Origin: Nitrosomonadales bacterium | GTDB taxonomy: Bacteria > Pseudomonadota > Gammaproteobacteria > Burkholderiales > SG8-41 | Reading direction: 5' to 3' | NCBI GenBank assembly: GCA_043777275.1 | Contig: JAYVQD010000473.1 | Span: 1-49,576, forward strand | Length of the DNA stretch: 49,576 nt | The notes under the pieces: generated by a model | What the model saw: only the letters and a program-made list of their open reading frames with translations | What the model was told of the DNA's origin: nothing | Database searches by the model: none | Made by a program: the position numbers and the translations under genes | Part shown: piece by piece, positions 725 to 40,545 of the stretch | Position numbering within the stretch: position 1 is the stretch's first letter | Layout: every line of letters starts with the position of its first letter

Positions 725-755
725 AAAAAATGCGGCTTTTCGGCCGCATTTTTTA
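725..755. terminator. Bidirectional rho-independent terminator between convergent genes
   Basis: Stem ATGCGGC (730-736) pairs with GCCGCAT (743-749). It is flanked by an A-run upstream and a T-run downstream. Confidence 0.7.
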
Positions 756-777
756 TTCAATAAAAACAAATACTTAC
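753..777 (-). repeat. AT-rich motif copy a (GTAAGTATTTGTTTTTATTGAATAA on the minus strand)
   Basis: Exact 25-mer, identical to the copies at 11002..11026 and 31666..31690. It lies 5 nt 3' of the stop codon of the 782..1555 gene, in sense orientation. Confidence 0.9.
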
Positions 778-781
778 ATCG

Positions 782-1555
782 TTATTCCCACAGCCGCTCC
801 GGCAGCGGCAAACCGGCGAGGTCTTCCGGTTTCATGCGTCCGTTGGGTTCAATACCAAAGCGCTCCAGTACGGCGGTGAGTTGGCGTACGTGTTGCGCGG
901 AGTGCCAGGTGGAGCGTTCGAGCAATTGCGACATCGGCTGCACGCCGTAGTACGTGTTGACCTTCACCGTGCAGGATTTATCCGCGAGCGATTCCCACCA
1001 CTGTTGCAGATGTTCGATGGCGCTGTCGCCATACTTCGCGATCTCGGCGCCGGTCATGTAGCCGCCTTCGGTCGGCGGCACATTGGCGAGTTGCACGGCG
1101 TAATCCGCGCCGTCGCGCGCGCATTCGAGAAACGCCTCACCGATGCGGAACACGTGAAAACTCAGAAAGCGTATCGTGCGCTCGCGGTTGTCGATCACAT
1201 TGCCGGTGATTTTGTCATCGGGCATCTGGCGGATCAGGCGTTGCGCCGCGCGCAGGATGGTGGTCCAGCGCTGGATGAGTTCCGCCGGCGGCAACGGCGT
1301 GTGACCGGTGCCCTGCAAACCCACAAACTTGGCGACGTCTTCGAGGTTTTGCCCGAATACGTAGGCTTTGCCGCGGGCGACCACGGGTACATTGCGCACG
1401 CCATACGACAATAATTTTTCACGTCCACCGGCGTCGTTCAGTACATCGATGACGTCGAAATCGATATTTTTTTTCGAAAGAAACTCTTTCGTTTTGAGGC
1501 AGCTACTTCATCCCGGTTGGGTGAAGAGCACGAACTTGTCTACGACTGCGTTCAT
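782..1555 (-). CDS. Candidate selenoprotein: glutaredoxin/NrdH-like domain (U-S-S-C redox motif) fused to a DinB/YfiT-like domain
   Basis: ATG at 1555 has GGAGG 6 nt upstream. The reading MNAVVDKFVLFTQPG-[TGA 1510..1508]-SSCLKTKEFLSKKNIDFDVIDVLNDAGGREKLLSYGVRNVPVV continues in frame, with no other stop, into the 209-aa ORF 782..1411. The TGA sits at the first Cys position of a Grx-type CxxC. If the TGA is a true stop, only 782..1411 (TTG start) would be the gene. Confidence 0.55.
1475..1491 (-). promoter_or_regulatory. SECIS-like hairpin downstream of the in-frame UGA
   Basis: On the mRNA strand this is CGAAAGA-GUU-UCUUUCG, a perfect 7-bp stem with a 3-nt loop. It starts 16 nt after the UGA at 1510..1508. 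Confidence 0.4.
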
Positions 1556-1630
1556 GGCAAACCTCCAGTTGGAAAACTCATTGAGATTACTCCCGCCGTG
1601 TAAAAACGGTCAAGTTTGTTTACGACCGGC

Positions 1631-2770
1631 TTACGAACAGGATTCCTGCCGCAGGCGTATCGCTTCCGCGGCGGCGGCGGATTGCGCGATTGATTCGATG
1701 ATACCGCCGCCCAGACACACGTTGCTTTCGTAGACCACCACCGATTGACCGGGCGTAACTGCCCACTGCGGCTCGGCGAATTCAACGGCGCAGCTTTGCT
1801 GCGTGGCCGAGGCAATGACGCACGGCGCGTCTTTCTGGCGATAGCGCGTTTTCGCGCCGTAGACCCAGCCGCAATGCGGTGTTGTTCCACTAATCCAGCT
1901 CAGATTCACCGCGGTCAGCCGGTCGGAAAACAGCGAGGCATGATCGTGTCCCTGCACCACGATCAGGCGGTTGTTCGGCATATCTTTCTCGGCGACATAC
2001 CACGCATCGCCGTCGCCGTTGCGTGTGCCGCCGATGCCCAAACCCTGGCGCTGACCCAGCGTATAAAACATCAAGCCGCTGTGCTTGCCCACCCGCACGC
2101 CATCAGGCGTACAGATGTCGCCGGGATTCGCGGGAATATAACGATTCAAAAACTCACGGAACGGGCGTTCGCCGACAAAGCAGATGCCGGTTGAATCTTT
2201 TTTGTCGTGCGTCGCCAGCCCTTCGCGGCGCGCGATGTCGCGCACGGCGATCTTGGTGAGATGACCCAGCGGGCACAGCGTTTTCGACAACTGCTGCTGA
2301 TTAAGGCGATACAGAAAATAACTTTGATCCTTGCTGCCGTCGTCGGCGCGCAGCAGTTGAAACAGCCCGTCACGCTCGCGCACTTGTGCATAGTGGCCGG
2401 TGGCGATGCAGTCGGCGCCCATCGCCATCGCGTGATCGAGAAACGCCTTGAATTTGATTTCGGCGTTGCACATCACGTCGGGGTTGGGCGTGCGCCCGGC
2501 TTTGTATTCGGCGAGAAACTCGTTGAACACGCGCTCTTTGTACTCGGCGGAAAAATTCACCTGCTCGATGTCGATGCCGATCTTATCGGCGACGGAAACC
2601 GCATCGATCAAATCCTGGCGCGACGAGCAATAATCATCCGTGTCGTCGTCTTCCCAGTTTTTCATGAACAGGGCGGTGACATCGTAGCCCTGTTGTTTTA
2701 ACAGTAGCGCGGCGACCGAGGAATCCACGCCCCCGGACAGGCCGACGACGACTCTTTTTTGGGCGCTCAT
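1631..2770 (-). CDS. mnmA: tRNA 2-thiouridine(34) synthase
   Basis: N-terminal PP-loop [19 protein letters not shown], and full-length resemblance to MnmA/TrmU (379 aa). Confidence 0.95.
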
Positions 2771-2842
2771 GAGGTGGCTGCTATGGCGTGATTCGGTTGC
2801 ATGCCGCTATTCTACCGCCTGTGCGCGGCTGCAAATAAAAAA

Positions 2843-2864
2843 GGCAGGGTCTCGCGACCCTGCC
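2843..2864 (-). terminator. Rho-independent terminator of the small secreted-protein gene
   Basis: GGCAGGGTC-TCGC-GACCCTGCC hairpin, followed on the minus strand by a TTTTTTATTT run. It lies 21 nt 3' of the stop at 2885. Confidence 0.7.
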
Positions 2865-2884
2865 TCTCCAGCGAAAATACGCGA

Positions 2885-3091
2885 TTACTTCTTGTCGTCT
2901 TTCTTGTCTTCTTTTTTGGCTTCGACTTTGGCGGCTTTGTCGTCTTTCTTGGCTTCGACTTTGGCGGCTTTGTCGTCTTTCTTGGCTTCGACCTTGGCGG
3001 CTTTGTCGTCTTTCTTGTCTTGCGCGATGACCGGGGTCATGGTTGCGGCAGCAAACACAGCAGCGATCAGGGTTGCAAACAGCTTGTTCAT
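2885..3091 (-). CDS. Small secreted Lys/Asp/Ala-rich repeat protein (68 aa)
   Basis: Signal-peptide-like MNKLFATLIAAVFAAATMTPVIAQ is followed by 3 x DKAAKVEAKKD. GAGGA lies about 7 nt upstream of the ATG, and a terminator lies downstream. Confidence 0.6.
   Translation of the reverse strand: MNKLFATLIAAVFAAATMTPVIAQDKKDDKAAKVEAKKDDKAAKVEAKKDDKAAKVEAKKEDKKDDKK
2918..3016. repeat. Tandem 33-bp repeat x3 inside the small secreted-protein gene
   Basis: GGCTTCGACTTTGGCGGCTTTGTCGTCTTTCTT occurs at 2918, 2951 and 2984. The third copy has one mismatch. Confidence 0.95.
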
Positions 3092-3236: not shown

Positions 3237-3259
3237 TCATAATAAAAACATATACTTAC
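3237..3259 (-). repeat. AT-rich motif copy b (GTAAGTATATGTTTTTATTATGA on the minus strand)
   Basis: There is one mismatch to the core in the 19 nt 3241..3259. The TAA inside G-TAA-G is the rluE stop codon (3258..3256). Confidence 0.75.
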
Positions 3260-3810
3260 GGATGAATTTTCCATAGTCCCGATTTGAGTCCATCGAGACT
3301 CCAGTCGCCGATGCGGTAGCGGATCAGCCGCAATGTGGGATGGCCGACAGCCGCCGTCATGCGCCGCACCTGGCGATTTTTTCCCTCGTGGATAGTGAGT
3401 TGCATCCATGCCGTGGGAATGTTTTTGCGAAAGCGCACGGGTGGCACGCGCGACCACAGCCATGCCGGTTCATTGACGCGGCACGCTTCGGCAGGCCGCG
3501 TGAGGCCATCGTTCAGCGTGATGCCTGCGCGTAGCTGCGCAAGCGCGGCTTCGTCCGGTTCTCCTTCAACCTGCACGTAGTATGTCTTCGGAAGTTTGTG
3601 CCGCGGATCGGTAATGCGATGTTGTTCGCGCCCGTCGTCCGTCAACACCAGTAACCCTTCGCTATCGGCATCGAGGCGTCCGGCAGCGTAAACATTCGGC
3701 TGCGGGATGAAATCCTTGAGCGTGCGTTTGCCTTCAGCCGCGCGAAACTGGCACAGCACGCCGTAGGGTTTGTTGAACAGCAGCAATTGCGTCATGGCCG
3801 GGGTGTGCAA
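3256..3810 (-). CDS. rluE: 23S rRNA pseudouridine synthase, RluE type
   Basis: [29 protein letters not shown] (catalytic Asp motif) and [26 protein letters not shown] match RluE closely. An alternative start is the ATG at 3795. Confidence 0.9.
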
Positions 3811-6995: not shown

Positions 6996-9260
<2,265 letters not shown>

Positions 9261-9399: not shown

Positions 9400-9720
9400 A
9401 TGAACCATTCATGGATAGGCGCCCGGTGCGCAGCCGTTATGATCGCGGGCGCGGCAATTCCCGCGCAGGCACAAGACCCCAATCCGCATGCCGCGCGCGC
9501 ACTGGCCGCCACTTGTTTTACCTGTCATGGCACGGAAGGCCGCAGCGTTGGTGGCGTGCCACCGAGCATTGCCGGACAAAGCAAGGCAGCAATGCTGCAG
9601 CAACTGCTGGATTTCAAGGCGGGCAAGCGACCGGCGACTATCATGCATCAGCATGCCAAGGGCTACACCGATGCGCAGCTTGAGCAGATCGCCGGCTACT
9701 TTGCCGCGGTTAAACCTTGA
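9400..9720 (+). CDS. fccA: Monoheme c-type cytochrome, probable sulfide dehydrogenase cytochrome subunit
   Basis: GGAGG lies upstream of the ATG at 9400. There is a signal peptide ending AQAQ and a single CFTCH heme motif. It is immediately followed by the flavoprotein subunit gene. Confidence 0.75.
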   Translation: MNHSWIGARCAAVMIAGAAIPAQAQDPNPHAARALAATCFTCHGTEGRSVGGVPPSIAGQSKAAMLQQLLDFKAGKRPATIMHQHAKGYTDAQLEQIAGYFAAVKP

Positions 9721-9736
9721 AAAGCAGGAGACAGCC

Positions 9737-11005
9737 ATGACCATTTCCAGACGTGAATTCATGCAGTGGACGGCAACCGTGGGTGCAGCAACGCTGACAG
9801 GGTGTGCAACCACCGGCGGCGGCAGTGCAGGGCGAGTCGTCGTCATCGGCGGCGGCATCGGCGGTGGCACGGCGGCGAAATACATAAAGATGTGGTCGCC
9901 GGACATTGACGTGACGGTGGTCGAACGCGAAGCGGATTTCATCTCGTGCCCGATCAGCAATCTGGTGCTCGCGGGCAATGCGACGATGGCGCAAATTACC
10001 ACGGGCTATTCGGGGCTTGCGAATCGCGGCATCAACGTCGTGCGTGACAGCGCGGTGGCCGTTGATCCGGTGGCAAAAACCGTGCGCCTGGCGGGCGGCA
10101 CCACCCTCCGTTACGACCGCTTGATCGTCTCGCCCGGCGTTGACTTCATGTACGAAAGTATTCCCGGTCTTAACAATGCGGCGGCGCAAAGCCAGGTGTT
10201 GCACGCGTGGAAGGCCGGGCCGCAAACGCTGGCGCTGAAGAAGCAACTCGAATCGATGCGCGACGGCGGCGTGTTTGTGATGCATATCCCGCTGGCGCCT
10301 TTCCGCTGCCCGCCGGGGCCGTATGAGCGCATCTGTCAGGTGGCGGATTACTTCCAGCGGGCAAAAGCAAAATCCAAAATCATCGTGCTCGATTCGAATC
10401 CTGATCTGGTGTCCAAAGCGGGCCTGTTCCGCAGCGCGTGGAACGGTCTTTACAAAGGCATGATCGATTACCGGCCCAACAGCGAAATCGCCGATGTCGA
10501 TGTGAAGGGCATGACCATCAAGTTGCAGTTCGGTGATGTCAGGGGTGATGTGCTCAACGTGGTGCCGCCACATCGCGCGGGCGACATCGCGCTCCAGGCG
10601 GGCTTGATTACCGCGAACAATCGCTGGTGCGGCATTGACTGGCTGACGTGTGAGTCGGTTAAAGTGCCCGGCGTGCATGTGTTGGGTGATGCGACACTAT
10701 CCGCGACCGCGATGCCCAAGTCGGCGAGCATGGCGAACCAGCACGCAAAAGTGTGCGCGGCGGCAGTGATCGCGCAGATCAAGGGACAGCCCGTGAATGC
10801 GCAGCCGATGATGATGAACACGTGCTACAGCTTCGTCGATGCCAAAAATGTAATCCATGTCGCTTCGGTGCATCAGTACAGCGCGGCGGACAAATCCATG
10901 ATGGTGGTGAAGGGCGCGGGTGGTTTGTCCGACAAAGCGAGCGAACTTGAAGGCCAGTACGCATGGGGTTGGGCGAGGAATATCTGGGCGGATTCTCTAT
11001 CGTAA
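9737..11005 (+). CDS. fccB: Flavocytochrome c sulfide dehydrogenase flavoprotein subunit (Tat-exported)
   Basis: Twin-arginine leader MTISRREFMQW, FAD fold VVVIGGGIGGGTAAKY, and overall FccB/SoxF-like sequence. The track ORF (9488) is over-extended across fccA. Confidence 0.85.
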   Translation: MTISRREFMQWTATVGAATLTGCATTGGGSAGRVVVIGGGIGGGTAAKYIKMWSPDIDVTVVEREADFISCPISNLVLAGNATMAQITTGYSGLANRGINVVRDSAVAVDPVAKTVRLAGGTTLRYDRLIVSPGVDFMYESIPGLNNAAAQSQVLHAWKAGPQTLALKKQLESMRDGGVFVMHIPLAPFRCPPGPYERICQVADYFQRAKAKSKIIVLDSNPDLVSKAGLFRSAWNGLYKGMIDYRPNSEIADVDVKGMTIKLQFGDVRGDVLNVVPPHRAGDIALQAGLITANNRWCGIDWLTCESVKVPGVHVLGDATLSATAMPKSASMANQHAKVCAAAVIAQIKGQPVNAQPMMMNTCYSFVDAKNVIHVASVHQYSAADKSMMVVKGAGGLSDKASELEGQYAWGWARNIWADSLS

Positions 11006-11026
11006 GTATTTGTTTTTATTGAATAA
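11002..11026 (+). repeat. AT-rich motif copy (GTAAGTATTTGTTTTTATTGAATAA)
   Basis: Exact 25-mer. Its internal TAA (11003..11005) is the fccB stop codon. Confidence 0.9.
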
Positions 11027-11030
11027 ATTA

Positions 11031-11066
11031 AATGGCGCTGACTACTGGTCAGCGCCATTTTTTTAG
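11031..11066. terminator. Bidirectional terminator between fccB and the DUF2784 gene
   Basis: AATGGCGCTGAC-TACTG-GTCAGCGCCATT hairpin followed by TTTTTT, with an A-rich tract on the other side. Confidence 0.8.
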
Positions 11067-11455
11067 TGTGGTTTGTGGCGTCGTGGCGGGACAAACCAGA
11101 ACGTTGCCGCAACCACCAGCGCGAACGCCACATACATCACCGTGAACACCCATTCAGGAAGCTGGAAGAACATCAGTTGATGCACCCAGCGCGCGATGAA
11201 ACTTTTGTCGCTGACTGCGCCGCCGGCTGTGCTACGCAAGGCGTCCTCCCATTCAGTGAGTGGACACACGATGCCGAGCAGTGCTTCGCTGGCGACGAAA
11301 ACGATTGCGGCCAGATGCGCCGCGCGAAACCAGAAATTGCGCACCCACTGCCAGCTTGCTGCGTAACCGATCCAGATCAGTGCGAGTCCGCCCACCACAA
11401 ACAGCACGAATGCGAAGTGAACGATAAGAATAATATCAGCGGCGAACGTATGCAT
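11063..11455 (-). CDS. DUF2784-like small membrane protein (130 aa)
   Basis: Four hydrophobic segments and a CPLTEWE motif typical of DUF2784. It lies 30 nt downstream of the patatin gene on the same strand. Confidence 0.65.
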   Translation of the reverse strand: MHTFAADIILIVHFAFVLFVVGGLALIWIGYAASWQWVRNFWFRAAHLAAIVFVASEALLGIVCPLTEWEDALRSTAGGAVSDKSFIARWVHQLMFFQLPEWVFTVMYVAFALVVAATFWFVPPRRHKPH

Positions 11456-11485: not shown

Positions 11486-14407
11486 TCAGGTGGCCTCTGC
11501 GCACAACACCTTAACGATGTTGGGATGATGCTTCACCCAGGCCGACGCGGAAAGGTAGCCGAGTTTGCGATAACTTTCGAACTGCGCTTCGTCGAACCAC
11601 TGATCGGAGGTGGGGTCCTGCGGGAATTTGGGGTTGATGCGCGCGTAGGAGTCAATCTCCGCCGGCTCACTGTCGGTGAGTACCGGCTTGAGATACACCA
11701 GAATGCCCGGCGTTGCGTTTTTGTTATCGGGATCATAATGAATTTTACCAATGGCAAATTGCCGTTGGGCCCGGCCATTGGGGCCTGCGCGCAACGGCGC
11801 CACATCAATCTCGATTTCGACGTTGAAATCCACGTAGCAGCGGCGAATCGCGTTGGCGAGATCGGCGAATTCCCACCTCGGATCCGCCCCGGCGTCGGTC
11901 ACCACAATGACGCGGCAGCGCCGCCGTATCAACTCGTAAATCGCCAGATTCTCAAAATGCCCGCCGTCGCTCAGGTAGACGAAATCCGAATCGAGACTTG
12001 ACGATCCGGTGACCTCCTGCAAAAGATAAAACAGATTCGGCTTGGGATCCCGCCGATGCCACGCGCGCCCGCACGGATTGCCCACCCACGCACCCAGACG
12101 AAAATTCGCCACCGCGAGCAGGAACGCCGTTGCCCGCGAGCCATAAAATCCCATCTTGGGGCTGGCTGCGGCGCAAGACACCGCCATCGCGCGTCCGAGG
12201 CTGATGCCGCCTGGCTCGTCTGCGGCGGCATAGGCGCTGGTACGCCGGAACGCTTCACCGCGCGCACCAGGTCCTGCGGCATAGCCACAGTAATTGGGTG
12301 TGAAAACGAAGGATACCGCCTTGCGGCCCGCGCCAATCTGCCCGGACAAATCTTCGACGTTGAGCGCTGCATTGATAATCGGGTAGGGCCGATGGTCCAG
12401 TTGGGCCATCGGCAAATCGTCGCCCGCCATATCCGCAAAAAATCCGATCTTGCGCCGGTGAGCCGAGCGCACTCGCAGGTAGCAGCGCGTGATGCGTTCC
12501 TGATAAGCGTGATGCAGTGAAAATAAATTAACTTTGAGCTGACTGCCCAGATACAGCAATGCAAGCGCCAATGCCGCCGCAATGGCGAGCGACATCAGCA
12601 GATAGTCTCCCCACTGCGTCGGCCAAATATCCTCGATTGCCCACGGATTGGGCCATGCGAAGTTTGTGCTTAGCGGGAAGAAGGAATACCAGATCAAGGC
12701 CTCACTGTTGGTGAGCCTTCCGCCATGGTCACTGAGTGCGCCACAGCACCACACTGAAAAGCGGGATATCGCGTCCGGGATTCCCATGGATTTGCTCACG
12801 CCGTAAAGCTGCACGAACCATTCCCTGAATAGCCATGAAGCGCCGAGCAACAGGCCGATCATGAAAATGTAAGGGGCACTTTGCGCCAGGAGTCGGCGCA
12901 GCCGTTCCGCTATCGCGCTTTGCGCCGTGCCGGCGCGTGCCGCGAACACGCCGCCTACAGTACCGGCGAGCCAGGACGGAAGCGCTACGTGTGTGGAGAT
13001 CAACGCTTCGAACACGCTCGGGCCGTTGATCGCCAAACCGAAAAATACCAGCCACGCCAGAATCGCGAGGTTGAAACCCCCGCCCATACGGCTCCACCAT
13101 GCGTGCTCTTCGGCGCTGAGCGAACGGCCGCGCAGCCCGATCCACACGGTTTGCGCAATCAAACATTGAATGACAATCAGTGGCGTACCCAGCCACACCA
13201 GCATCCACGGATTGCCGAGTTGGTACGAATTTTCGAGCAACGGGACGGTGGATGTCAGCATGGCGGCGAGCAGGAGACTGCTCGCCACGAGTGCGCCAAG
13301 CCGCACCGGTGAACTGCCCTGGACGCCCGCGACCGCGCTGCGCGCAAAGTAAATGGTGAGGGGAATCAGCACGAACAGTGCCAGGCCATAGGTCGTGGCC
13401 TCGGCCCAGGTGTGGCCGCTTCCGGTGAGCGCGAATATGGCGGCGACGGTGCTTGCCAGCAACATGAACACCACACAAAACAAACGCGGGTCAACGATTA
13501 GAATATAACCGAATACCGTGACCGCGACCGCGATTTGCGTAGTGCCCAGCCCCACGGCCGTATCCGCAGCAGTCCAAAGCGCGAGACACACCAGCGCATT
13601 GCACACCAACATGGTCAGTGGCAACACTATCACATAATAATGCGTATTTTGCGCGTCAACTTTAGACAATGGCCAGCACGCGCCCGAACCTCGTGCCGCA
13701 TTTAACGCGCGCCCCGAAATCAGTGCGAGCAAGCCTATTCCCACGACAGCGCCCGCGATGCTCCACAACGGGTTCGGTTGTAACGACCACATGCCGACGC
13801 CGCCCCAGACCAACGCCTGCACCACCGCCATGGCCAGAAACAGCGCCAACAGGATGGTGATCAGGTTGAGCAGCAGGTTGCGCACAAAGGTGGAAACGAA
13901 GCTGGAAATGTCGAGATTGAGTGTCTTGAAACTGGGGAATACCGAACTGGACCAGTCGCGCACGAAGCGCACAGCATCGTCTTCTTTTGTTTTGTTTGCG
14001 ATGCGCGCCGCGACACGCTCCGTGGCAGTGGAATCGCCTTCCGCTTGATTGCGTTCCTCACGAATTTGCGCCGCGAGCCAGCCACCGGTGAAACCGCCGC
14101 CGGAGACCGTGGACAGATAGTCGAACTTCGTCAGCAGTCCATGCTCCGCCAGCGCTTGTGCAACACCCAGTGCGTAGCTGCCGCTACGTGTGCCGCCACC
14201 GGAAAACGCCAGAGCGGTCAAGGATGCTTCGGTCGCGCGTTGCGCGCTGGACGGGGGCGTAGCGTTCGTAGAGGCCGCAGGCGCCGCGCAGGGCGAACCC
14301 CGCAGCAAAGCAATTTCTTCGGACAACACTTGATCGAAGGCAACGCAAGGAGCATCGTCGGGCAGCCGGCCGAGTAGCTTGTCCCAAAGTTTACGTATGA
14401 ATCCCAT
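11486..14407 (-). CDS. Patatin-like phospholipase whose catalytic domain is split by a large polytopic membrane insertion (973 aa)
   Basis: Oxyanion motif SGGGTRS at about aa 69-75 and nucleophile elbow STVSGGG with Ser at about aa 102 (14104..14102). About a dozen hydrophobic helices span roughly aa 160-640. The catalytic Asp motif SDGGHFENL has Asp at about aa 814 (11968..11966). Confidence 0.8.
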   Translation of the reverse strand: MGFIRKLWDKLLGRLPDDAPCVAFDQVLSEEIALLRGSPCAAPAASTNATPPSSAQRATEASLTALAFSGGGTRSGSYALGVAQALAEHGLLTKFDYLSTVSGGGFTGGWLAAQIREERNQAEGDSTATERVAARIANKTKEDDAVRFVRDWSSSVFPSFKTLNLDISSFVSTFVRNLLLNLITILLALFLAMAVVQALVWGGVGMWSLQPNPLWSIAGAVVGIGLLALISGRALNAARGSGACWPLSKVDAQNTHYYVIVLPLTMLVCNALVCLALWTAADTAVGLGTTQIAVAVTVFGYILIVDPRLFCVVFMLLASTVAAIFALTGSGHTWAEATTYGLALFVLIPLTIYFARSAVAGVQGSSPVRLGALVASSLLLAAMLTSTVPLLENSYQLGNPWMLVWLGTPLIVIQCLIAQTVWIGLRGRSLSAEEHAWWSRMGGGFNLAILAWLVFFGLAINGPSVFEALISTHVALPSWLAGTVGGVFAARAGTAQSAIAERLRRLLAQSAPYIFMIGLLLGASWLFREWFVQLYGVSKSMGIPDAISRFSVWCCGALSDHGGRLTNSEALIWYSFFPLSTNFAWPNPWAIEDIWPTQWGDYLLMSLAIAAALALALLYLGSQLKVNLFSLHHAYQERITRCYLRVRSAHRRKIGFFADMAGDDLPMAQLDHRPYPIINAALNVEDLSGQIGAGRKAVSFVFTPNYCGYAAGPGARGEAFRRTSAYAAADEPGGISLGRAMAVSCAAASPKMGFYGSRATAFLLAVANFRLGAWVGNPCGRAWHRRDPKPNLFYLLQEVTGSSSLDSDFVYLSDGGHFENLAIYELIRRRCRVIVVTDAGADPRWEFADLANAIRRCYVDFNVEIEIDVAPLRAGPNGRAQRQFAIGKIHYDPDNKNATPGILVYLKPVLTDSEPAEIDSYARINPKFPQDPTSDQWFDEAQFESYRKLGYLSASAWVKHHPNIVKVLCAEAT

Positions 14408-14419
14408 AATCGCCCCTGG

Positions 14420-16225
14420 TCAATGTCCTCGCGCGAGCGTCGCGCGGATGCACTCGCGCAAGTCTTCGGGTAACACGGGTTTGAGCAGAAATTCAAAGTT
14501 GTCCGCGCGCGCTAGATTGCTGAGATCGGGCGTAATGCTTCCGGTGACCAGTATCGCGCGTATTTCCGGATCGAGTTCCTGGCGTAATCGCTGTGCAACC
14601 TGGATACCGTTTTCGCCGTCGCCGAGCCGGTAATCCACGATCAGCAGGTCGGGCATGCGTTCAGTCTGGTATACCGCTTCGAGCACGTCGTCGCCGGTGG
14701 CGGAGCCGATGACCTCGGCACCCCAGCCCGACAGCAGCGCCTTCATGCCGTCGACAATCGATTCTTCGTCATCGATAACGACAATCAGCTTGCCCGAAAG
14801 GTCGGTGGGTGAGGACAGTGCCGCGCGCACGCTGGGCGCGTTCGGCGCTTGCAGTTCACCCAGCGGCACGTCGAAGCTGAACACGGAACCCTGACCTGCC
14901 GCCGATTCGAGATGCATGGTATATCCGAGCAATTCGCACATGCGCTGGACGATGGACAAACCCAATCCCAAGCCCTTTTTACTGGTGCGGCCAGGGTTGC
15001 CGACCTGAAAGAACTCATCGAAGATGCGCTGCTGATGTTCGAGCGGAATGCCGATACCCGTGTCGCGCACCGCTATGCGCAACCGATCGTCGGTGCGTGC
15101 CAGCGTTAGGACAATCTTGCCGGCGGGCGTGTAGCGGATGGCGTTGCTGATCAGATTGCGCAGGATACGTTCCAGCAGCACTGCGTCGCTATGGATAATG
15201 TGTGCTTCAGTGCTCACCTCCAGTTGGAGCCCCTTGGCAGCGGTTTCCACAGTGAATTCCGCGCGCAGTCGCGCGAGCAACTCCTGGATCGCGAAACCGC
15301 CGAGTTTTGGCTTGATGACGCCTGAATCCAGTTTCGAGATGTCGAGCAGCTCATTGAACAAGGCTTCGAGCGAATGAACTGAGGCATTGATACTGCCCAC
15401 GATGCTCGCCACTTCAGGGTAACGGACTTTTTCGGCCAGCGCGGCGGCAAACAACCCCATGGCGTGCAGCGGCTGGCGCAGATCATGGCTGGCGGCGGCA
15501 AAGAATTGCGTTTTTGCACGGTTCGCCTGTTCGGCCTCAACGCGCGCCGCTTCGAGATCCGCATTCTGCTCAACCAGCTTGTCGGCGAGGATTTCTTTCT
15601 CGAGCCGGTTGCGTAACGATTCTGCCAGCATTTGATGGTAGTTGCGGCCAAACGCCACGTAACCTATGGTTACCATGCTCATGATGACGCTGATGGTGAT
15701 ATGCACCACGTCGCCTTCCATGAGATTGCGCACGATAAAGGGCAGCAGCGCCGGCAGCACAAAGGCGTAGAACGCAGGCATGTGAGCGCCGAGCATCGGA
15801 CCGCCTGCTGCGGCAGCGCCGAATACCACTATCGCCAGCAGTGCCTGATACGCGTCATGCCCCGATACAAAGAACACGAACGCCGTCGAGCCCCATAAGG
15901 CGCCCGATATGAATGCGCCACCCGTCCAGATGAGCGCCGCCCGGTCAACATTCGCGTTAACGAAACCCTTGTTGAGATCGTGGAAGTAGAGGAGTAGTCG
16001 CGACAATTGAATGAGGAAGATGCAGGCAAGCCACGCGGCGATAGTTCCCCATGGCCGTTCGCCGATGAGGGCTGTAGACAGCACGCATGCGCCTGCCACG
16101 TTGCCGGCAATGGATCGCGGCAATTGCTGATAGAGCATACGAACCTGTTCCGCGCGAATCAGCTCATCAAGCTTCGTTCTTACGCGCGGGTTCAAAATCG
16201 TTCCTAATATTTGCGCTTTGCTCAT
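14420..16225 (-). CDS. Hybrid sensor histidine kinase / response regulator with N-terminal multi-TM sensor
   Basis: H-box FFAAASHDLRQPLH, an HATPase region (DTGIGIP, GLGLGLSIV) and a C-terminal receiver (LIVVIDDEE...LLIVDYRL). The N-terminal 200 aa are hydrophobic. Confidence 0.9.
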   Translation of the reverse strand: MSKAQILGTILNPRVRTKLDELIRAEQVRMLYQQLPRSIAGNVAGACVLSTALIGERPWGTIAAWLACIFLIQLSRLLLYFHDLNKGFVNANVDRAALIWTGGAFISGALWGSTAFVFFVSGHDAYQALLAIVVFGAAAAGGPMLGAHMPAFYAFVLPALLPFIVRNLMEGDVVHITISVIMSMVTIGYVAFGRNYHQMLAESLRNRLEKEILADKLVEQNADLEAARVEAEQANRAKTQFFAAASHDLRQPLHAMGLFAAALAEKVRYPEVASIVGSINASVHSLEALFNELLDISKLDSGVIKPKLGGFAIQELLARLRAEFTVETAAKGLQLEVSTEAHIIHSDAVLLERILRNLISNAIRYTPAGKIVLTLARTDDRLRIAVRDTGIGIPLEHQQRIFDEFFQVGNPGRTSKKGLGLGLSIVQRMCELLGYTMHLESAAGQGSVFSFDVPLGELQAPNAPSVRAALSSPTDLSGKLIVVIDDEESIVDGMKALLSGWGAEVIGSATGDDVLEAVYQTERMPDLLIVDYRLGDGENGIQVAQRLRQELDPEIRAILVTGSITPDLSNLARADNFEFLLKPVLPEDLRECIRATLARGH

Positions 16226-16416
16226 GCGGGAATTTGCTCCGGGTTGGCGTCCGATGCATGGGTCGTTGCTGTGGCGATCGGCCAGACTGTGGGTGTGGCT
16301 ACTTTCCGTTGGCGTACGTTGACGAGGATGGCGCCGGCCTGCGGCTGCATCGACAAGCAGTGTTTGCGGCCACGACGATGATAGTCCACGAAGACGGAAA
16401 TGATCCCGGCTCTCAT
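16222..16416 (-). CDS. Possible small protein (64 aa) translationally coupled to the kinase gene
   Basis: Its TGA overlaps the kinase ATG (ATGA at 16225..16222). Third positions are G/C-rich and AGGGGG lies just upstream of the ATG. I recognised no family. Confidence 0.3.
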   Translation of the reverse strand: MRAGIISVFVDYHRRGRKHCLSMQPQAGAILVNVRQRKVATPTVWPIATATTHASDANPEQIPA

Positions 16417-16467
16417 GCGCCCCCTATCTGCGGCTGATTCCTGCCGCCGCTGTTTAAGTCGCCCGCT

Positions 16468-17166
16468 TCACGGGGCCGACAGCTTCAATCCCAGTTTACC
16501 GACGGCGATCACGGCCTGCGTGCGATTGTTGACGTTGAGTGAACGCAGAATCCCGCTGATGTGAGTTTTAATCGTGCCTTCCGCGAGGTTCAACGCCCGG
16601 CAGATGAGTTTGTTAGGTTTACCCTGCACCAGCAGTGACAACACCTGCCCCTGGCGTTCGGTCAGCCCCAAGTCGCGGTAGGTGACCTCGGGTTGCGCGA
16701 CGCCCGGATCCGCCGGCGGATGCGGGTGTGCTGCTGTCGACTGGCGCAGCACGTCAGCGGGCAGATACACGCCACCGGCCAGCACCAGGCGCAATGCACC
16801 CAGCAACACGTCATTCGACGACGTTTTGGGAATGAATCCCATGGCGCCGTCGTCCAGTGCGCGCATCACACTTGCCGCATCGTCCGTGGCCGACAGCACC
16901 ACCACGGGCATGCCGGCGTGCTGTTCGCGCAACTGGTGCAGCACTTCAAAACCGTTGGCGTCCGGCAGGGACAGATCAAGCAGCACCAGGTTCAAGTCAG
17001 GGTTTTCCGACGCCGCGATCAGGGTTTCCTGCGCATTGGCGGCAGTCAGTAAATCCAATTCAGGATCGAGCACCTTGAGCACCTGGCGCAACGCGTCACG
17101 GATTAGTGGATGGTCATCAACCGCAAGTATCTTCACCGGCCCCTCACTTTGGTAGTGGATAGACAT
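16468..17166 (-). CDS. NarL/LuxR-family response regulator
   Basis: Receiver domain (ILAVDDHPLIRDAL, VLLDLSLPD) plus a C-terminal LuxR HTH (LTERQGQVLSLLVQGKPNKLICRALNLAEGTIKTHISGILRSLNVNNR). Confidence 0.9.
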   Translation of the reverse strand: MSIHYQSEGPVKILAVDDHPLIRDALRQVLKVLDPELDLLTAANAQETLIAASENPDLNLVLLDLSLPDANGFEVLHQLREQHAGMPVVVLSATDDAASVMRALDDGAMGFIPKTSSNDVLLGALRLVLAGGVYLPADVLRQSTAAHPHPPADPGVAQPEVTYRDLGLTERQGQVLSLLVQGKPNKLICRALNLAEGTIKTHISGILRSLNVNNRTQAVIAVGKLGLKLSAP

Positions 17167-17235
17167 CCCGGAGCAACCCCTAGGCCCTTAGTCGCAGTCC
17201 AGTGTATTACAAATACGTTATAGATTGTAATTACC

Positions 17236-17260
17236 ATAACTATTTGTTTTTAAAAAGAAT
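17236..17260 (+). repeat. AT-rich motif copy c (ATAACTATTTGTTTTTAAAAAGAAT)
   Basis: The 16-nt core TAACTATTTGTTTTTA is shared with the other copies. It lies in the divergent promoter region between the response regulator gene and the small-ORF cluster. Confidence 0.7.
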
Positions 17261-17274
17261 AATTATTGGTTGAG

Positions 17275-17290
17275 TGTGACGTTTGTCACA
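17275..17290. promoter_or_regulatory. CRP/Vfr-type binding site TGTGA-N6-TCACA
   Basis: TGTGACGTTTGTCACA has perfect consensus half-sites. It is centred about 130 nt upstream of the ATG at 17412 and about 115 nt upstream of the response regulator start. Confidence 0.45.
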
Positions 17291-17411
17291 ATGCGCTAAT
17301 CCTTTTGGCTGATACCGCAGCCCCTGCTTTTTCCCCACAATAGCCCCACAGAAGATCAACCGGATTTCTTTCGCAACCGCAACCGAGGCACTACGGCATA
17401 AGGAGACAGCC

Positions 17412-17549
17412 ATGACTAGCCAAAAAACGCGCTACGACCTATTTGACTCGCCGCATCGGTCGCAGCGCGGTGTGTTTTTCAAGGTGCAGGCCATCGCCGA
17501 ATATTCCGATGCGCGGCTGCGACGGTTGCTTTTCGCGCGGCACTCATAA
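17412..17549 (+). CDS. Possible 45-codon small ORF / leader peptide
   Basis: AGGAGA lies 5 nt upstream of the ATG. Translation is MTSQKTRYDLFDSPHRSQRGVFFKVQAIAEYSDARLRRLLFARHS. It falls below the ORF-track length cut-off and shows no recognisable family. Confidence 0.3.
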   Translation: MTSQKTRYDLFDSPHRSQRGVFFKVQAIAEYSDARLRRLLFARHS

Positions 17550-17604
17550 TCCTTTTATTTCCCTTCATTTTCCTCTTAGTCCGGCGTTTGCAACGGAGGT
17601 CACC

Positions 17605-17793
17605 ATGCTAACCGAACACGAAAAAGAGCAACTGATGCACGACTATCAACGTGAGCCCGCGTCGGTTGCCGGCCTATTGCTGACCTGCGCCGGGGGCTTA
17701 CTGATGGTGTGGGTCCTGGCACTGGTCGGGCTCGACATAATCGGGTTATCCAATGCGCCGACGACGACGCAAGCAGCGAACACGGCCCGCTGA
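17605..17793 (+). CDS. Small single-TM protein (62 aa), paralogue 1
   Basis: GGAGG lies 5 nt upstream of the ATG. Translation is MLTEHEKEQLMHDYQREPASVAGLLLTCAGGLLMVWVLALVGL..., and it aligns with the next gene product. Confidence 0.5.
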   Translation: MLTEHEKEQLMHDYQREPASVAGLLLTCAGGLLMVWVLALVGLDIIGLSNAPTTTQAANTAR

Positions 17794-17803
17794 AATCCCT
17801 GTG

Positions 17804-18115
17804 ATGAACCCCGATCAAAAACAAACACTGATGGATGTCGTGCGCGAAGAATCGATGCGCGTCGCCGGCGCCCTGCTTAAAAGCGCCGTGGGGCTGCTGT
17901 TCATGCTAGGGTTGGTGGGGATCGGCTCGATAACCGGTTTACGCGAAAACACCGTTGCGCCAGTGGCGGTCATTTCGCCAGTAGCGGTAATAGCAGCCGG
18001 TGATGCCGCGAAGGTTGTTCGGATGGTGAGGGACGAATCCGTGGTGCTGGCGCGGTTCGATAGAGTGCTTAACAAACACGTGATGCCGGTCGGCGTCGAA
18101 CCCTCGAACCGATAG
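17804..18115 (+). CDS. Small single-TM protein (103 aa), paralogue 2
   Basis: MNPDQKQTLMDVVREESMRVAGALLKSAVGLLFMLGLVGIG... shares the pattern Q.LM....RE....VAG.LL..A.GLL with the preceding ORF. It starts 11 nt after that ORF's stop. Confidence 0.5.
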   Translation: MNPDQKQTLMDVVREESMRVAGALLKSAVGLLFMLGLVGIGSITGLRENTVAPVAVISPVAVIAAGDAAKVVRMVRDESVVLARFDRVLNKHVMPVGVEPSNR

Positions 18116-18149
18116 AACGTTTTTGGGCCGGTGTCCGGCGCGCGCCGGA

Positions 18150-19010: not shown

Positions 19011-19126
19011 CGGATGCCTGGCTGCAAGGTGGCGCGGGTTGCAAAGGTAATCGAAAAAAAATCCGTTGCAAAGTGCTGCACGTGAAAAGGGCGGTAAGGC
19101 AACCACCCTAATTACCTTATCCGCCC

Positions 19127-19151
19127 GTAACTATTTGTTTTTATTGAGTAA
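19127..19151 (+). repeat. AT-rich motif copy d (GTAACTATTTGTTTTTATTGAGTAA)
   Basis: It abuts the stop codon (19152..19154) of the Rieske oxygenase gene in antisense orientation, and lies about 117 nt upstream of the sseA start. Confidence 0.85.
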
Positions 19152-27599: not shown

Positions 27600-27706
27600 T
27601 TATCAATCTCCAATGAATTTTTTAGCCTGCGGCTGCCGACACACACACATTTGTCGTAGCGGCGTTGCTTACCTTTCACATTTTCGCTTAATTGGCGGTG
27701 TATAAT

Positions 27707-27731
27707 ATAAGTATTTGTTTTTAAACAATAT
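27707..27731 (+). repeat. AT-rich motif copy f (ATAAGTATTTGTTTTTAAACAATAT)
   Basis: It lies between the bufC-like stop (27741) and the arsS start (27599). With its flank (TATAATATAAGTATTTGTTTTTAAAC) it closely matches copy h. Confidence 0.8.
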
Positions 27732-27740
27732 TTCGTGACG

Positions 27741-31659: not shown

Positions 31660-31665
31660 ATAATC

Positions 31666-31690
31666 GTAAGTATTTGTTTTTATTGAATAA
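31666..31690 (+). repeat. AT-rich motif copy g (GTAAGTATTTGTTTTTATTGAATAA)
   Basis: Exact 25-mer, 6 nt after the DUF302 stop codon, in sense orientation. Confidence 0.9.
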
Positions 31691-32212: not shown

Positions 32213-32230
32213 TGGCTGGGCAGTGACGCC

Positions 32231-34998: not shown

Positions 34999-35622
34999 AT
35001 GACGACCAAACGGCAAATGGTGGATGATGACGATACCGAGGGTTATTCCAAGGTGGATAATTACCACCCCGTGACGGTAAAGCGCGTGGCGGACAAATAC
35101 CGCACGATACTGAAAGACCTCGGTGAGAACCCGGATCGCGAGGGTTTGCTCAAAACACCGGAGCGCGTGGCCAAGGCGCTGCATTATCTGACGCACGGCT
35201 ACGATCTCGATCCGGCGGAAATTCTGCGTTCCGCGATGTTCGCCGAGGATTATTCGCAGATGGTCATCGTCAAGGACATCGAAATCTATTCGATGTGCGA
35301 GCACCACCTGTTGCCGTTTTTCGGCAAGGCGCACGTGGCGTATATTCCGAACGGGCGCATCGTCGGGCTGTCGAAGATTCCGCGTGTGGTGGACGCCTTC
35401 GCGCGGCGCCTGCAAGTGCAGGAGCGGCTCACCATGGAAGTGCGCAACTGTCTTGAAGAAACCTTAAAGCCCCTCGGCGTGGCGGTGGTGATCGAGGCCA
35501 AGCACCTGTGCATGGTGATGCGCGGTATTCAGAAACAAAACTCCACCACTACCACCTCGGCGTTTACCGGCGAGTTCAACGTCGATAAAACGCGCTCTGA
35601 ATTCCTGCGCTTGCTCCAGTGA
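34999..35622 (+). CDS. folE: GTP cyclohydrolase I
   Basis: [33 protein letters not shown] and [14 protein letters not shown] are the canonical FolE blocks. Confidence 0.9.
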
Positions 35623-36878: not shown

Positions 36879-36896
36879 ACCCAATACCAATAATAT

Positions 36897-36921
36897 ATAA
36901 GTATTTGTTTTTAAACGATTT
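36897..36921 (+). repeat. AT-rich motif copy h (ATAAGTATTTGTTTTTAAACGATTT)
   Basis: It lies between the convergent ribBA and protease genes. It abuts the protease stop (36922..36924) and is 19 nt after the ribBA stop. Confidence 0.8.
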
Positions 36922-38309: not shown

Positions 38310-38321
38310 ACGCTTCACCGA

Positions 38322-38402
38322 AAAGGCGCAAAGAATCGCCGCAAAGAACACCTGAAAGCCACGCACTTCTTTGCGTTTCCTTTGCGTCTTTGCGCCTTTG
38401 CG
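38322..38402. repeat. Imperfect long hairpin built from CGCAAAG / CTTTGCG units (REP-like; likely terminator between convergent genes)
   Basis: The left arm is AAGGCGCAAAGAATCGCCGCAAAGAA. The right arm is TTCTTTGCGTTTCCTTTGCGTCTTTGCGCCTT. Confidence 0.6.
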
Positions 38403-38445
38403 GTGAGGTTTTGAACTTGAAGTGGCCGTTAATTGCGCCGCGAGA

Positions 38446-38937
38446 TCAGTCGCGGAAGTTTTTGAATTGCAGCGGAAAATCGGTAATCGATTTGCGCATC
38501 AGGGCGATGGCGTCCTGCAGCAGGTCTTTTTTGGCGCCGGTCACGCGTACCACATCGCCCTGAATGCTGCCTTGAACCTTCATCTTGCTGTCTTTGAGGA
38601 GCTTGATGATTTTCTTGCCGAGTTCCTGATCGACGCCTTCGCGCACCTTGACGATGCGCTTGACCTTATTGCCGCCGATGGTTTCGATTTTTTCCAGTTC
38701 CAGGCAACGCACGTCGATGCCGCGCTTGGCGAGGCGGCCGGTGAGCACGTCCATCACCTGACTGAGTTTGAAATCGTCATCGGCGTAGACAACGAGTTCT
38801 TTCTCTTTGTCCTTGATCTCGACGCGGGCATCCGACCCTTTGAAGTCGAAGCGGTTGGTGACTTCCTTGTTGCACTGGTCAACCGCGTTGCGAACTTCCG
38901 GCTGATTGACTTCGGAGGCAATATCGAATGTGGGCAT
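38446..38937 (-). CDS. yajQ: YajQ-family nucleotide (c-di-GMP)-binding protein
   Basis: [34 protein letters not shown] matches the UPF0234/YajQ N-terminus. Length 163 aa. Confidence 0.9.
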
Positions 38938-38950
38938 GACGAACTCCCTG

Positions 38951-39271
38951 CTACTTGAAGTGACACACGTAATCGAGCGTCTCGATAGTCTCGATCTCAA
39001 ACGAGGAATTACCGGGCGCGTCGAACGATTCGCCTGCGCGCACCGTGCGCCAGCCGGGCGCACCTGCCAGTTTGACGTTGCACACCCCGGCGTTGATTTC
39101 CATCACTTCCGGCGCGCCGGTGTTGAAGGTGAGTTTGCTGGGGAAGATCACGCCCACGCTTTTGCGCGTACCGTCGGCAAACAGCACGGTGTGGCTGACG
39201 CACTTGCCGTCGAAGTAGACGTTGGCTTTTTTGACGACGCTGACATTATCAAATTGCACGAACTGTGACAT
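38951..39271 (-). CDS. ppnP: Pyrimidine/purine nucleoside phosphorylase PpnP (DUF1255)
   Basis: [14 protein letters not shown], a cupin-like 106-aa protein typical of PpnP/YaiE. Confidence 0.8.
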
Positions 39272-39282
39272 GGCGTTGCTTC

Positions 39283-40515
39283 CTACTTGTGGTGTTTGTT
39301 CAGCCTGGCGGCGATGCGCAGGCGCAAGGCATTCAGGCGGATGAATCCGGCGGCATCGGCTTGATTGTAGGCGCCGCCGTCATCTTCAAACGTGGAAATA
39401 GCCGGATCGAACAGCGAGTTCGGCGAGGTGCGGCTGACCGTCATCACCGTGCCTTTGTAGAGCTTGACCTTGACCGTGCCATTGACGGCGGCCTGCGATT
39501 GATCGATCAGCGATTGCAGCAACAGCCGCTCGGGGCTGAACCAGTAGCCGTTATAAACCATGCGCGCGTAGCGTGGCATCAGATCGTCTTTTAACGCCAG
39601 CACTTCGCGGTCGAGCGTGATCGATTCCATGGCGCGGTGGGCCTTCAACATGATGGTGCCGCCGGGGGTTTCGTAACAGCCGCGCGATTTCATACCGACA
39701 TAGCGATTTTCGACCAGATCAAGGCGGCCCACGCCGTGTTTGCCGCCGAGTTGATTGAGTTTTTCGAGAATCCTCGCGGGCGTGAGTTTTTTACCGTTGA
39801 TTGCGACAATGTCGCCGCGCTGATAGGTGAGTGATACGACTTCGGGCTTGTTCGGCGCTTTTTCCGGTGACACGGTGATGCGCCACATCGAATCCTCGGG
39901 CTCGTAGGCGGGGTCTTCCAGCACGCCGCCTTCATACGAAATATGCAGCAGGTTGGCGTCCATCGAGTACGGTGCGCCACCGCCTTTTCTTTTTTTGTAA
40001 TCGACGGGGATGCCGTGTTTGTCGGCATACGCCAGCAGTTTTTCGCGTGACAGCAAATCCCATTCGCGCCACGGCGCGATCACTCTGACGTCGGGCATCA
40101 GCGCATAGGCCCCGAGTTCAAATCGCACCTGGTCGTTGCCTTTGCCGGTGGCGCCGTGCGAAATCGCATCGCCCTTGGTCTTGCGCGCGATCTCCACCAG
40201 CCGCTTCGCAATCAACGGACGCGCGATAGACGTGCCGAGCAAATATTCGCCTTCGTACACGGCATTGGCGCGAAACATCGGAAACACAAAGTCGCGGACG
40301 AATTCTTCGCGCAGATCTTCGATGTAAATATTTTCGCGCTTGATGCCCATCTTGATCGCCTTGGCACGCGCGGGGGCGACTTCTTCGCCTTGGCCGATGT
40401 CAGCGGTGAAGGTGACGACTTCGCAGTGGTAGACATCCTGTAGCCACTTCAAAATGACGGAGGTATCGAGGCCGCCGGAATAGGCGAGGACGACTTTATT
40501 AACTTTATCGCTCAT
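39283..40515 (-). CDS. argG: Argininosuccinate synthase
   Basis: [29 protein letters not shown] and [17 protein letters not shown] are the canonical blocks. Confidence 0.95.
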
Positions 40516-40523
40516 TTAAAATA

Positions 40524-40545
40524 CTCAATTAAAACAATTAGTTAC
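40524..40545 (-). repeat. AT-rich motif copy i, degenerate (GTAACTAATTGTTTTAATTGAG on the minus strand)
   Basis: It resembles copy d with about 3 differences. It lies 9 nt upstream of the argG ATG and 42 nt after the argF stop. Confidence 0.5.

Follow-up and report, generated by a model that had tools for sequence, protein, structure and literature searches.

A clade-specific family of short AT-rich intergenic repeats in GC-rich genomes of uncultured Betaproteobacteria, and its possible origin from a transposon end

Few non-coding features organise bacterial chromosomes. Short dispersed repeats such as repetitive extragenic palindromic (REP) sequences, uptake signal sequences (USS) and DNA uptake sequences (DUS), and miniature inverted-repeat transposable elements (MITEs) belong to them, and nearly all known repeats of this type are either hairpins or uptake signals. 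Here we describe a motif that also belongs to the short dispersed intergenic repeats, found in a 49,576-nt stretch of DNA from a Nitrosomonadales bacterium (the complete contig JAYVQD010000473.1 of the metagenome-assembled genome GCA_043777275.1, hereafter the window) and in related genomes. It is unusual in being AT-rich within a GC-rich genome (window G+C about 58%), single-ended and unstructured, in having an invariant head of 17 nt, and in being confined to uncultured lineages. The best explanation of the data is that the motif represents a clade-specific family of short, dispersed, AT-rich intergenic repeats acting at the DNA level.

Several described systems come close to it. Like REP sequences and bacterial interspersed mosaic elements (BIMEs, including the IHF-binding RIP/RIB, or BIME-1, and the REP-RAYT systems), the motif is short, extragenic, high in copy number and clade-specific, lies at gene 3' ends and in convergent spacers in either orientation, plausibly binds a protein, and may originate from transposon ends recognised by a domesticated transposase; REPs, however, are GC-rich palindromic hairpins, whereas the motif is AT-rich and shows neither dyad symmetry nor a fold. 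With the Correia/NEMIS elements, and with other MITEs carrying a site for integration host factor (IHF), it shares the character of a small intergenic insertion, an IHF-like site and the capacity to supply stop or start signals, but Correia elements, which span 100-155 bp, have inverted ends of 26 bp and duplicate TA, while the motif is about 35 bp long and single-ended. The terminal repeats of the IS66 family are 20-30 bp long, start with GTAAGCG or GTAACCG and are associated with 8-bp duplications (PMC11946415, PMC12888890). The motif likewise starts with GTAAG or GTAAC, falls in the 20-30 bp range, is preceded by 8 AT-rich nucleotides resembling the preferred target, and has the same 9-nt tip as MITEs of its own clade; unlike IS66 repeats and derived MITEs, its copies stand solo, with no partner, detectable duplication or transposase, the remainder of the sequence is AT-rich and not of the GTAAGCG type, and the head has been conserved over the long term.

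Number, anatomy and position of the copies

The core TATTTGTTTTTA, allowing at most one mismatch, was found 12 times in the window against 0.11 expected from dinucleotide-preserving shuffles; the 16-mer TAASTATTTGTTTTTA, allowing at most three mismatches, was also found 12 times (7 perfect, 2 one-off, 2 two-off and 1 three-off) against 0.25 expected. Counts 50-100 times above chance rule out a random assortment or generic AT-rich spacer DNA. A previous sequence-only reading of the window had listed ten copies, and a profile hidden Markov model (HMM) trained solely on copies from other genomes (cut-off E<=0.02) returned exactly these ten and nothing else above noise. The stretch at 45903-45918, which lies inside a gene and is conserved there in relatives, was set aside as a chance resemblance. 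The three identical 25-mers (GTAAGTATTTGTTTTTATTGAATAA) of that reading were recovered at 753-777 (-), 11002-11026 (+) and 31666-31690 (+), with a two-mismatch copy at 19127-19151 (+). The copies and the features directly attached to them are listed below with their HMM scores; loci other than the window are designated by L numbers.

Copy 1, 750-779, minus strand: exact 25-mer at 753-777, in a convergent spacer, 5 nt past the stop codon of a DinB-superfamily gene (782-1411, minus), its tail abutting a terminator hairpin; 28.0 bits.
Hairpin by copy 1, 731-748, no strand assigned: GC-rich TGCGGC-TTTTCG-GCCGCA between A6 and T6 runs, a bidirectional intrinsic terminator separate from the repeat.
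Copy 2, 3241-3264, minus strand: one mismatch in the core (TATATG); an rluE-like pseudouridine synthase gene (3256-3810, minus) ends with its TAA as stop codon; retained in L145, L146 and L141; 10.9 bits.
Copy 3, 10997-11032, plus strand: exact 25-mer at 11002-11026, in a convergent spacer; its TAA is the stop codon of fccB (9488-11005, plus) and a terminator (11030-11060) follows; 32.7 bits.
Copy 4, 17231-17253, plus strand: head ATAACTATTTGTTTTTA and tail AAAAGAATAA; the sole window copy in a divergent spacer, between a LuxR-type response regulator gene and a hypothetical gene; 15.0 bits.
Copy 5, 19125-19154, plus strand: GTAACTATTTGTTTTTATTGAGTAA, antisense to the flanking genes, between the stop codon of a Rieske oxygenase gene (19152-20288, minus) and the terminator hairpin and promoter upstream of a rhodanese gene; orthologues in L061, L067, L064 and L141; 28.1 bits.
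Copy 6, 23295-23321, plus strand: core TAACTATTTGTTTTTT; its complement forms the first codons (MIKKQIVT) of a DUF547 gene (22513-23328, minus); 16.2 bits.
Copy 7, 27700-27732, plus strand: ATATAAGTATTTGTTTTTAAACAATATTT, of the AAAC-tail subfamily, 17 nt from the stop codon of a DUF2063 gene and at a synteny breakpoint; 14.8 bits.
Copy 8, 31660-31690, plus strand: exact 25-mer at 31666-31690, 7 nt past the stop codon of a DUF302 gene, with no hairpin after it; the same junction in L208 has a decayed copy; 28.4 bits.
Copy 9, 36888-36913, plus strand: AAAC-tail subfamily, filling the 43-nt convergent spacer between ribBA and an aspartyl-protease gene, with no hairpin; orthologues in L148 and L149 with 1-2 core changes; 11.9 bits.
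Copy 10, 40516-40555, minus strand: degenerate (GTAACTAATTGTTTTAATTGAGTA), its 5' flank extended (AAATAATC), located between the stop codon of argF and the start codon of argG; orthologues in L148, L149, L207 and L208; 20.0 bits.
Possible decayed relic, 17816-17831, minus strand: TCAGTGTTTGTTTTTG, with 3 mismatches, at the stop of the gene at 17815-18195; missed by the HMM and of uncertain membership.

Most of what had been said about the placement of the copies also held. For nine of the ten, a stop codon is no more than about 45 nt away; in copies 2 and 3 it is formed by the TAA of G-TAA-G, and the copy at 23307 does encode the N-terminus of the DUF547 protein. Each exact 25-mer lies in sense orientation directly 3' of a gene, and a hairpin terminator (731-748 and 11030-11060) comes after two of them. 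One assignment had to be corrected, as the gene 5' of the 753-777 copy belongs to the DinB superfamily and is not rluE.

Alignment of 57 copies from the window and related genomes delimited an AT-rich, non-palindromic box of about 35-45 bp, made of the invariant 17-nt head GTAASTATTTGTTTTTA and of an AT-rich tail that decays over about 15 nt. The head has the layout G-TAA-S-TATTTGTTTTTA, TAA and TATTTGTTTTTA being invariant, and the position after TAA is occupied by G or C (31:26) and never by A or T. Its 5' boundary is sharp, with G at position -1 in 93% of the copies and an information content that falls steeply 5' of this G, where the 8 preceding positions are weakly AT-rich (RAWWTWTY). The commonest tail is TTGAATAATTTAT, the other subfamilies being AAACRATWTTT and AAAAGAATAA. 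When all copies were compared with one another by BLAST with 300-bp flanks, non-orthologous copies were alike only from about -20 to +45. The lack of internal dyad symmetry reported earlier was confirmed, and as RNA neither strand of the motif was predicted to fold better than shuffled sequence (minimum free energy -3.6 and -1.5 kcal/mol; z = 0.0 and -0.9).

Every member is intergenic or reaches a few bases into the end of a gene, and none was found in coding sequence in more than 500 kb. Orientation is mixed: of the 58 copies for which both neighbours could be called, those between co-directional genes are antisense in 22 cases and sense in 18, and the others occupy convergent (13) or divergent (5) spacers. 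Convergent spacers are enriched in the window, where 4/6 carry a copy as against 6/35 other spacers (Fisher p = 0.02); overall the motif occupies about one fifth of the spacers of this GC-rich genome. Copies often fill an entire spacer, give the stop codon to the upstream gene or abut the downstream start codon, in either orientation, and those abutting a start stand in place of the Shine-Dalgarno region. The flanking genes are unrelated housekeeping genes (mnmA, rluE-like, clpA, fccB, rhodanese, ribBA, argF/argG, selA/selB, dnaB), a heterogeneity that led us to reject a regulon. A replication polarity comparable to that of FtsK-orienting polar sequences (KOPS) or Chi was likewise rejected, since orientation relative to local GC skew, the kind of strand bias that the sequence-only reading had listed among the things to check, was not significant (26:19, p = 0.37). 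The mixed orientation, the lack of GC-skew bias, of an RNA fold and of any Rfam match, and promoter-like sites that are no commoner than in shuffles thus indicate a DNA-level element, which fits the data best, and not a promoter, operator or RNA motif.

Searching related genomes, as had been proposed together with the ten copies, placed the exact 25-mer (S and R allowed) at 43 loci in 16 species-representative metagenome-assembled genomes (MAGs) and in no cultured species. These MAGs stem from lakes, glacier-fed streams, groundwater and soils; with the exception of some mislabelled Bordetella, all carry the label Betaproteobacteria or Burkholderiales bacterium. The 43 unrelated loci in 16 genomes also rule out that the copies of the window are remnants of a single local duplication. 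Relatives were sampled via proteins, and not via the motif, in order to avoid motif ascertainment. The motif was present in lineages down to about 74-84% Rieske oxygenase identity (L061, L064, L067) and about 87% ArgG identity (L207-L209); the other 76 metagenome loci, syntenic or related (about 0.7 Mb), lacked it, as did L210. Its density ranges from one copy per 5 kb (window and L145) to one per 7-26 kb in other lineages, the window having 10 copies in 49.6 kb, relatives having 3-5 in every 21 kb, and 309 kb of MAG loci yielding, seed excluded, about 1 per 26 kb. AT-rich patches of at least 24 nt are in these GC-rich genomes almost exclusively copies of the motif. Only 3/43 copies are less than 500 nt away from a contig end, with unrelated sequences distal to them; we thus found no contig-end enrichment and rejected the motif as the end of a multicopy insertion sequence. 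The 12-mer core, in either orientation, retrieved from the searchable literature unrelated papers only, with no relevant context, and papers on uptake sequences and on IHF or REP supplied no more than background. Whatever its role, the motif offers a practical clade marker and calls for caution in gene calling, given that start and stop codons may come from the repeat.

Turnover of the sites and resemblance to transposon ends

The head is conserved far beyond its surroundings. From the window to L149, L141 and L061, divergence at fourfold-degenerate sites amounts to 35-47%, while at retained orthologous sites the 16-nt core differs at 11/112 positions (about 10%), with tails and flanks diverged or unalignable. 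Where spacers of the window have a counterpart in L061, 3/4 copies are kept with at most 2 changes, a retention far beyond neutral expectation by a binomial estimate and improbable for neutral relics. Relatives at 1-7% fourfold divergence have all copies in common, with single copies drifting by 1-2 bases.

At greater distances sites are gained, lost and turned around. L141, whose MnmA is 92% identical, lacks the copies following fccB and the DinB-like gene (copies 3 and 1), with plain hairpin terminators instead, and has an extra copy at the selA/selB junction. The fccB spacer has the motif in L061, where it stands alone with no hairpin, and in L145, whereas L067, L062 and L065, like L141, have the hairpin only. 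At the pyr-redox/DUF547 junction the motif is antisense and serves as codons in the window and in L061, lies in sense upstream of the ATG in L067, and is missing together with the gene in L062. A further case involves folE and ribBA, which overlap by GTGA in the window (35619-35622), L148, L149 and L207; at L209 19549-19593 a 43-nt spacer with a perfect copy of the motif parts the two genes, providing folE with a new C-terminus (AAKA) and ribBA with a new ATG start. Because conserved heads are found together with gain, loss and flipping of sites and with the folE/ribBA split, we infer that the family spreads by block insertion and is then held near the consensus.

The sequence-only reading had dismissed the motif as too short for a MITE. 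This holds for the motif itself, which at about 35 bp and with a single end lacks the two inverted ends, the duplication and the length of about 50-500 bp typical of MITEs, but it missed that the motif head is the tip of the terminal repeats of genuine MITEs in the same clade. Over both strands of 541 kb of clade DNA, GTAASTATT occurs 68 times, namely in 64 motif copies, in 1 degenerate copy and at 3 MITE tips (GTAACTATTCAGRTYCGA), and nowhere else; the first 9 nt of these MITE ends (GTAACTATTCAG) are identical to the motif head. One such element, of 169 bp (L040 2149-2317, contig CAMBGJ010000424.1), is inserted exactly in the tail of a motif copy and has perfect 14-bp terminal inverted repeats (GTAACTATTCAGGT...ACCTGAATAGTTAC), a perfect 8-bp target duplication (GAATAATT) and a strong GC-rich interior hairpin (z = -5). 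In the plasmid database only the GC-rich interior hairpins of this element gave matches, its ends none; pieces of it match repeats on Azospirillum, Xanthomonas and Cupriavidus replicons. A second, MITE-like element (L041 7358-7520) has the same end, GTAACTATTCAGATTCGA (GTAACTATTCAGATTCGACAGCAAAC), with an imperfect partner, an interior hairpin of GAGGTCA(T/C)A repeats and a degenerate motif copy about 30 nt downstream. Both elements qualify as MITEs. Like IS66-type repeats, the motif alternates between G and C after GTAA (GTAAG in 31 copies, GTAAC in 26). Its 5' boundary is sharp and its length, about 25-33 nt, is conserved. The 8-nt AT-rich stretch 5' of its tip resembles the target duplication of the L040 MITE; no duplication was detected around the motif itself. 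No inverted pair of motifs was found flanking tnpA/tnpB/tnpC or a MITE body, and motif pairs in inverted order enclose ordinary genes.

Candidate roles of the motif

We tentatively regard the motif as a DNA recognition site that arose from a transposon end, was spread by insertion and has been maintained since, a reading to which we give somewhat less than an even chance. The motif head would be the tip of an IS66-type transposon terminal repeat, and copies would have been seeded by transposase-type insertion into AT-rich sites at gene 3' ends and in short spacers. Insertions at 3' ends and in spacers would be tolerated and could even supply stop or start codons. The copies would then be kept, by selection or ongoing homogenisation, as recognition sites for a DNA-binding protein. 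This would be the cognate, possibly domesticated, transposase, and IHF or another bending protein might act with it. Effects on the host, be it the insulation or punctuation of adjacent transcription units or the provision of architectural sites, would be independent of orientation. The discrete tail subfamilies, the orthologous spacers found filled in some lineages and empty in others, the one flipped spacer and the differences in density between lineages are suggestive of such an insertion-like history. The motif may also reflect a REP/RAYT-like partnership built on DDE (IS66-type) transposon ends; were it a domesticated transposon end with a cognate binding protein, the REP/RAYT idea would be extended to another class of transposase.

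A number of observations weigh against an origin from a transposon end. There is no detectable target-site duplication around the motif at any offset, no partner inverted repeat or longer parent element in the flanks of the copies, and no IS66-type transposase gene in any locus examined. Very close relatives (fourfold divergence 1-7%) showed no insertion polymorphism that would demonstrate activity. The likeness to the GC-rich canonical IS66 repeats is limited to GTAAS, the link consisting of the 9 nt that the motif has in common with two or three MITE ends from related MAGs. Moreover, the long conservation of the head is unlike a dead transposon fragment, so that a second assumption is needed, namely a binding protein with selection or conversion. 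Finally, we know of no mechanism that scatters solo terminal repeats in hundreds of copies.

A DNA recognition site is what fits best among the roles that the sequence-only reading had grouped as DNA uptake or recognition, and uptake proper has to be weighed separately. On that explanation the competence machinery would prefer DNA carrying GTAASTATTTGTTTTTA with its AT-rich flank, and biased uptake followed by recombination (molecular drive) would spread perfect copies. Sequence-specific DNA uptake would then exist in a third, independent lineage of bacteria, for the first time outside Neisseriaceae and Pasteurellaceae, with the motif as its signal. That signal would be confined to spacers, kept by biased transformation across at least 16 uncultured freshwater Betaproteobacteria species, and would point to sequence-selective transformation in abundant freshwater bacteria. 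The copies are dispersed in both orientations with no transcription, strand or GC-skew bias; the same invariant head recurs in 16 species, conserved over a fourfold divergence of 0.4-0.47; perfect copies outnumber one-off copies (7:2:2:1); and the layout of a core with an AT-rich flank recalls the Haemophilus USS. DUS and USS prefer terminator regions (PMC3630211, PMC3458573), and the frequent proximity of the motif to terminators counts in favour. Nevertheless, a density of one copy per 5-26 kb is 5-25 times below that of known uptake sequences, which number roughly one per kb, or hundreds to thousands per genome, and are also found inside genes; no member of the family lies in coding sequence in the more than 500 kb surveyed, no inverted pairs occur, and the stretch at 45903-45918, the only similar one inside a gene, is conserved coding sequence. 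The invariant core of 16-17 nt, longer than in DUS and USS, holds far more information than known receptors read, and the relatives show no dialects. Nor would uptake account for the identity of the head with MITE tips, for strong differences in copy number between lineages with the same head, or for the folE/ribBA case, which looks like a block insertion and not like drive by point mutation. All this makes an uptake signal, as described above, an unlikely explanation.

Equally unlikely, in our estimate, is a transposon-independent site for a bending protein of the IHF type, selected in spacers for the architecture of the chromosome or of transcription units, as are the IHF sites of the E. coli RIP/BIME-1. 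In IHF sites the consensus WATCAANNNNTTR is preceded, at a distance of about one helical turn, by a dA/dT tract. TAA-STAT-TTGTTT matches its reverse complement at 8/9 specified positions with the AT tract on the correct side, and an asymmetric element of about 35 bp, a G/C-only position compatible with minor-groove read-out, the preference for 3' ends and convergent spacers and a head under purifying pressure would all suit such a site. The same 8/9 score, though, is reached by 24% of motif shuffles. IHF specificity is moreover conserved across Proteobacteria, so a clade-restricted invariant 17-mer, invariance at the consensus 'N' positions and tail subfamilies would be unexpected, and the MITE-tip identity and insertion-like history would be left unexplained. 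The site for a nucleoid-associated protein or global regulator that had been suggested survives in this IHF-like form, while a regulon operator is improbable given the unrelated housekeeping neighbours and the scarcity of copies in the promoter-bearing divergent spacers (5/58), the least used of all.

A third possibility, the 3'-end or intercistronic RNA element named in the sequence-only reading, would make the motif an AU-rich site for RNase E or Hfq, a terminator module lacking a hairpin, or an S1-dependent translation enhancer of the downstream gene. Many copies do follow stop codons directly or precede start codons with no Shine-Dalgarno sequence, the start-adjacent cases being selA/selB (L145), argF/argG (window) and oxygenase/rhodanese (L141), and the motif is unstructured, as such sites are. 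With the two orientations equally common, however, transcripts would carry two unrelated sequences, one U-rich and the other A-rich, and the motif is even flipped at one orthologous spacer. Generic AU-rich functions need no invariant 17-mer, the motif does not fold beyond shuffles, and the window gave 0 Rfam matches at the gathering score. No hairpin of an intrinsic terminator lies within the motif, those by copies 1, 3 and 5 being separate and present in motif-free relatives. Such a role was hence considered very unlikely.

A promoter or the operator of a transcription-factor regulon is hardly credible: some copies, when read as reverse complement, show a -10-like TACRAT, and copies are in a few instances overlapped by promoter-like sites, yet sigma-70 promoter-like sites are no commoner than in shuffles (8 against 8.7 and 9 against 6.7) and share no fixed register with the motif. 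Copies do not point preferentially towards gene starts, are often closer than 15 nt to a start codon or sit between convergent genes, and have functionally unrelated neighbours. Even taken together, the RNA-level and the promoter or operator readings are poorly supported and quite improbable.

Sites from other systems were also compared with the motif, namely Tus/Ter (only TAAGTAT in common), the dif/XerD arm, the Tn7 TnsB sites (13/22), the IS903 repeat (TTGAATAAAT), the H-NS nucleation site, the ArgR half-box, the OmpR/PhoB direct repeats and the UP element; all were rejected as no better than expected for AT-rich DNA.

Look-alikes in viruses and features of the neighbouring sequence

Among viral contigs the 17-mer has 58 matches, about the chance estimate for a collection of that size, mostly in AT-rich phages, and the 20-mer has 17 matches in about 7 lineages. 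The latter were not accepted as family members, the base 5' of TAA being other than G in most of them. In enterobacterial prophages (L044 1558-1620, L054 and L060, all from IMG/VR and from genomes of isolates) an ssrA 3' attachment fragment is found about 7 nt away from the 20-mer TAACTATTTGTTTTTATTGA, which lies between tandem integrase islands, and in L165, a viral contig with 60% GC, the 17-mer abuts the 3' end of a tRNA gene. Since their overall number is about that of chance, these matches next to attachment sites may be a coincidence, or else may represent an IHF-type arm site.

Beside tRNA-Sec in the near relative L145 (18410-19300, GCA_043773065.1) lies a gene for a 175-aa Y1-transposase-like (RAYT-like) protein, flanked by GTAG-type REP-like hairpins (GTAGGCGGGA...TCCCGCCT) and not by the AT-rich motif.

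Patatin, hybrid histidine kinase and LuxR-type response regulator genes form a block at 11486-17800 of the window that is partly found in L061 and is absent from L067, L062, L065 and L141, where DUF2784 directly adjoins the rhodanese gene. Motif copies or relics are situated at or near several synteny breaks (17816, 23307, 27708 and 31667). A promoter-like block (CTTTGCAACGG...TTTCGATTACCTTTGC) is conserved upstream of the rhodanese gene in the window (19000-19110), L061, L064, L065 and L067, which places the true start of that gene about 100 nt 3' of its first in-frame start codon.

Between mnmA and the rluE-like gene, a small open reading frame contains four tandem 33-nt repeats (TTGTCGTCTTTCTTGGCTTCGACTTTGGCGGCT; 2892-3021). 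Its product, probably a repeat protein of low complexity that is rich in lysine and aspartate, has no Pfam match in relatives.

At the same spacers, motif-free relatives carry long hairpins of tandem heptamers (GGATTCA, ATGGGTA, ATGAATG, TGATTGG and others), as in L062 at about 11135-11230 and about 8275-8385, and just 3' of the oxygenase gene in L063, L066, L068 and L070. A hairpin of this kind, built of CTTTGCG/CGCAAAG units, is also found in the window at 38320-38420, within the convergent spacer 38310-38445. These heptamer hairpins resemble the intergenic heptamer repeats of Beggiatoaceae (PMC4679880).

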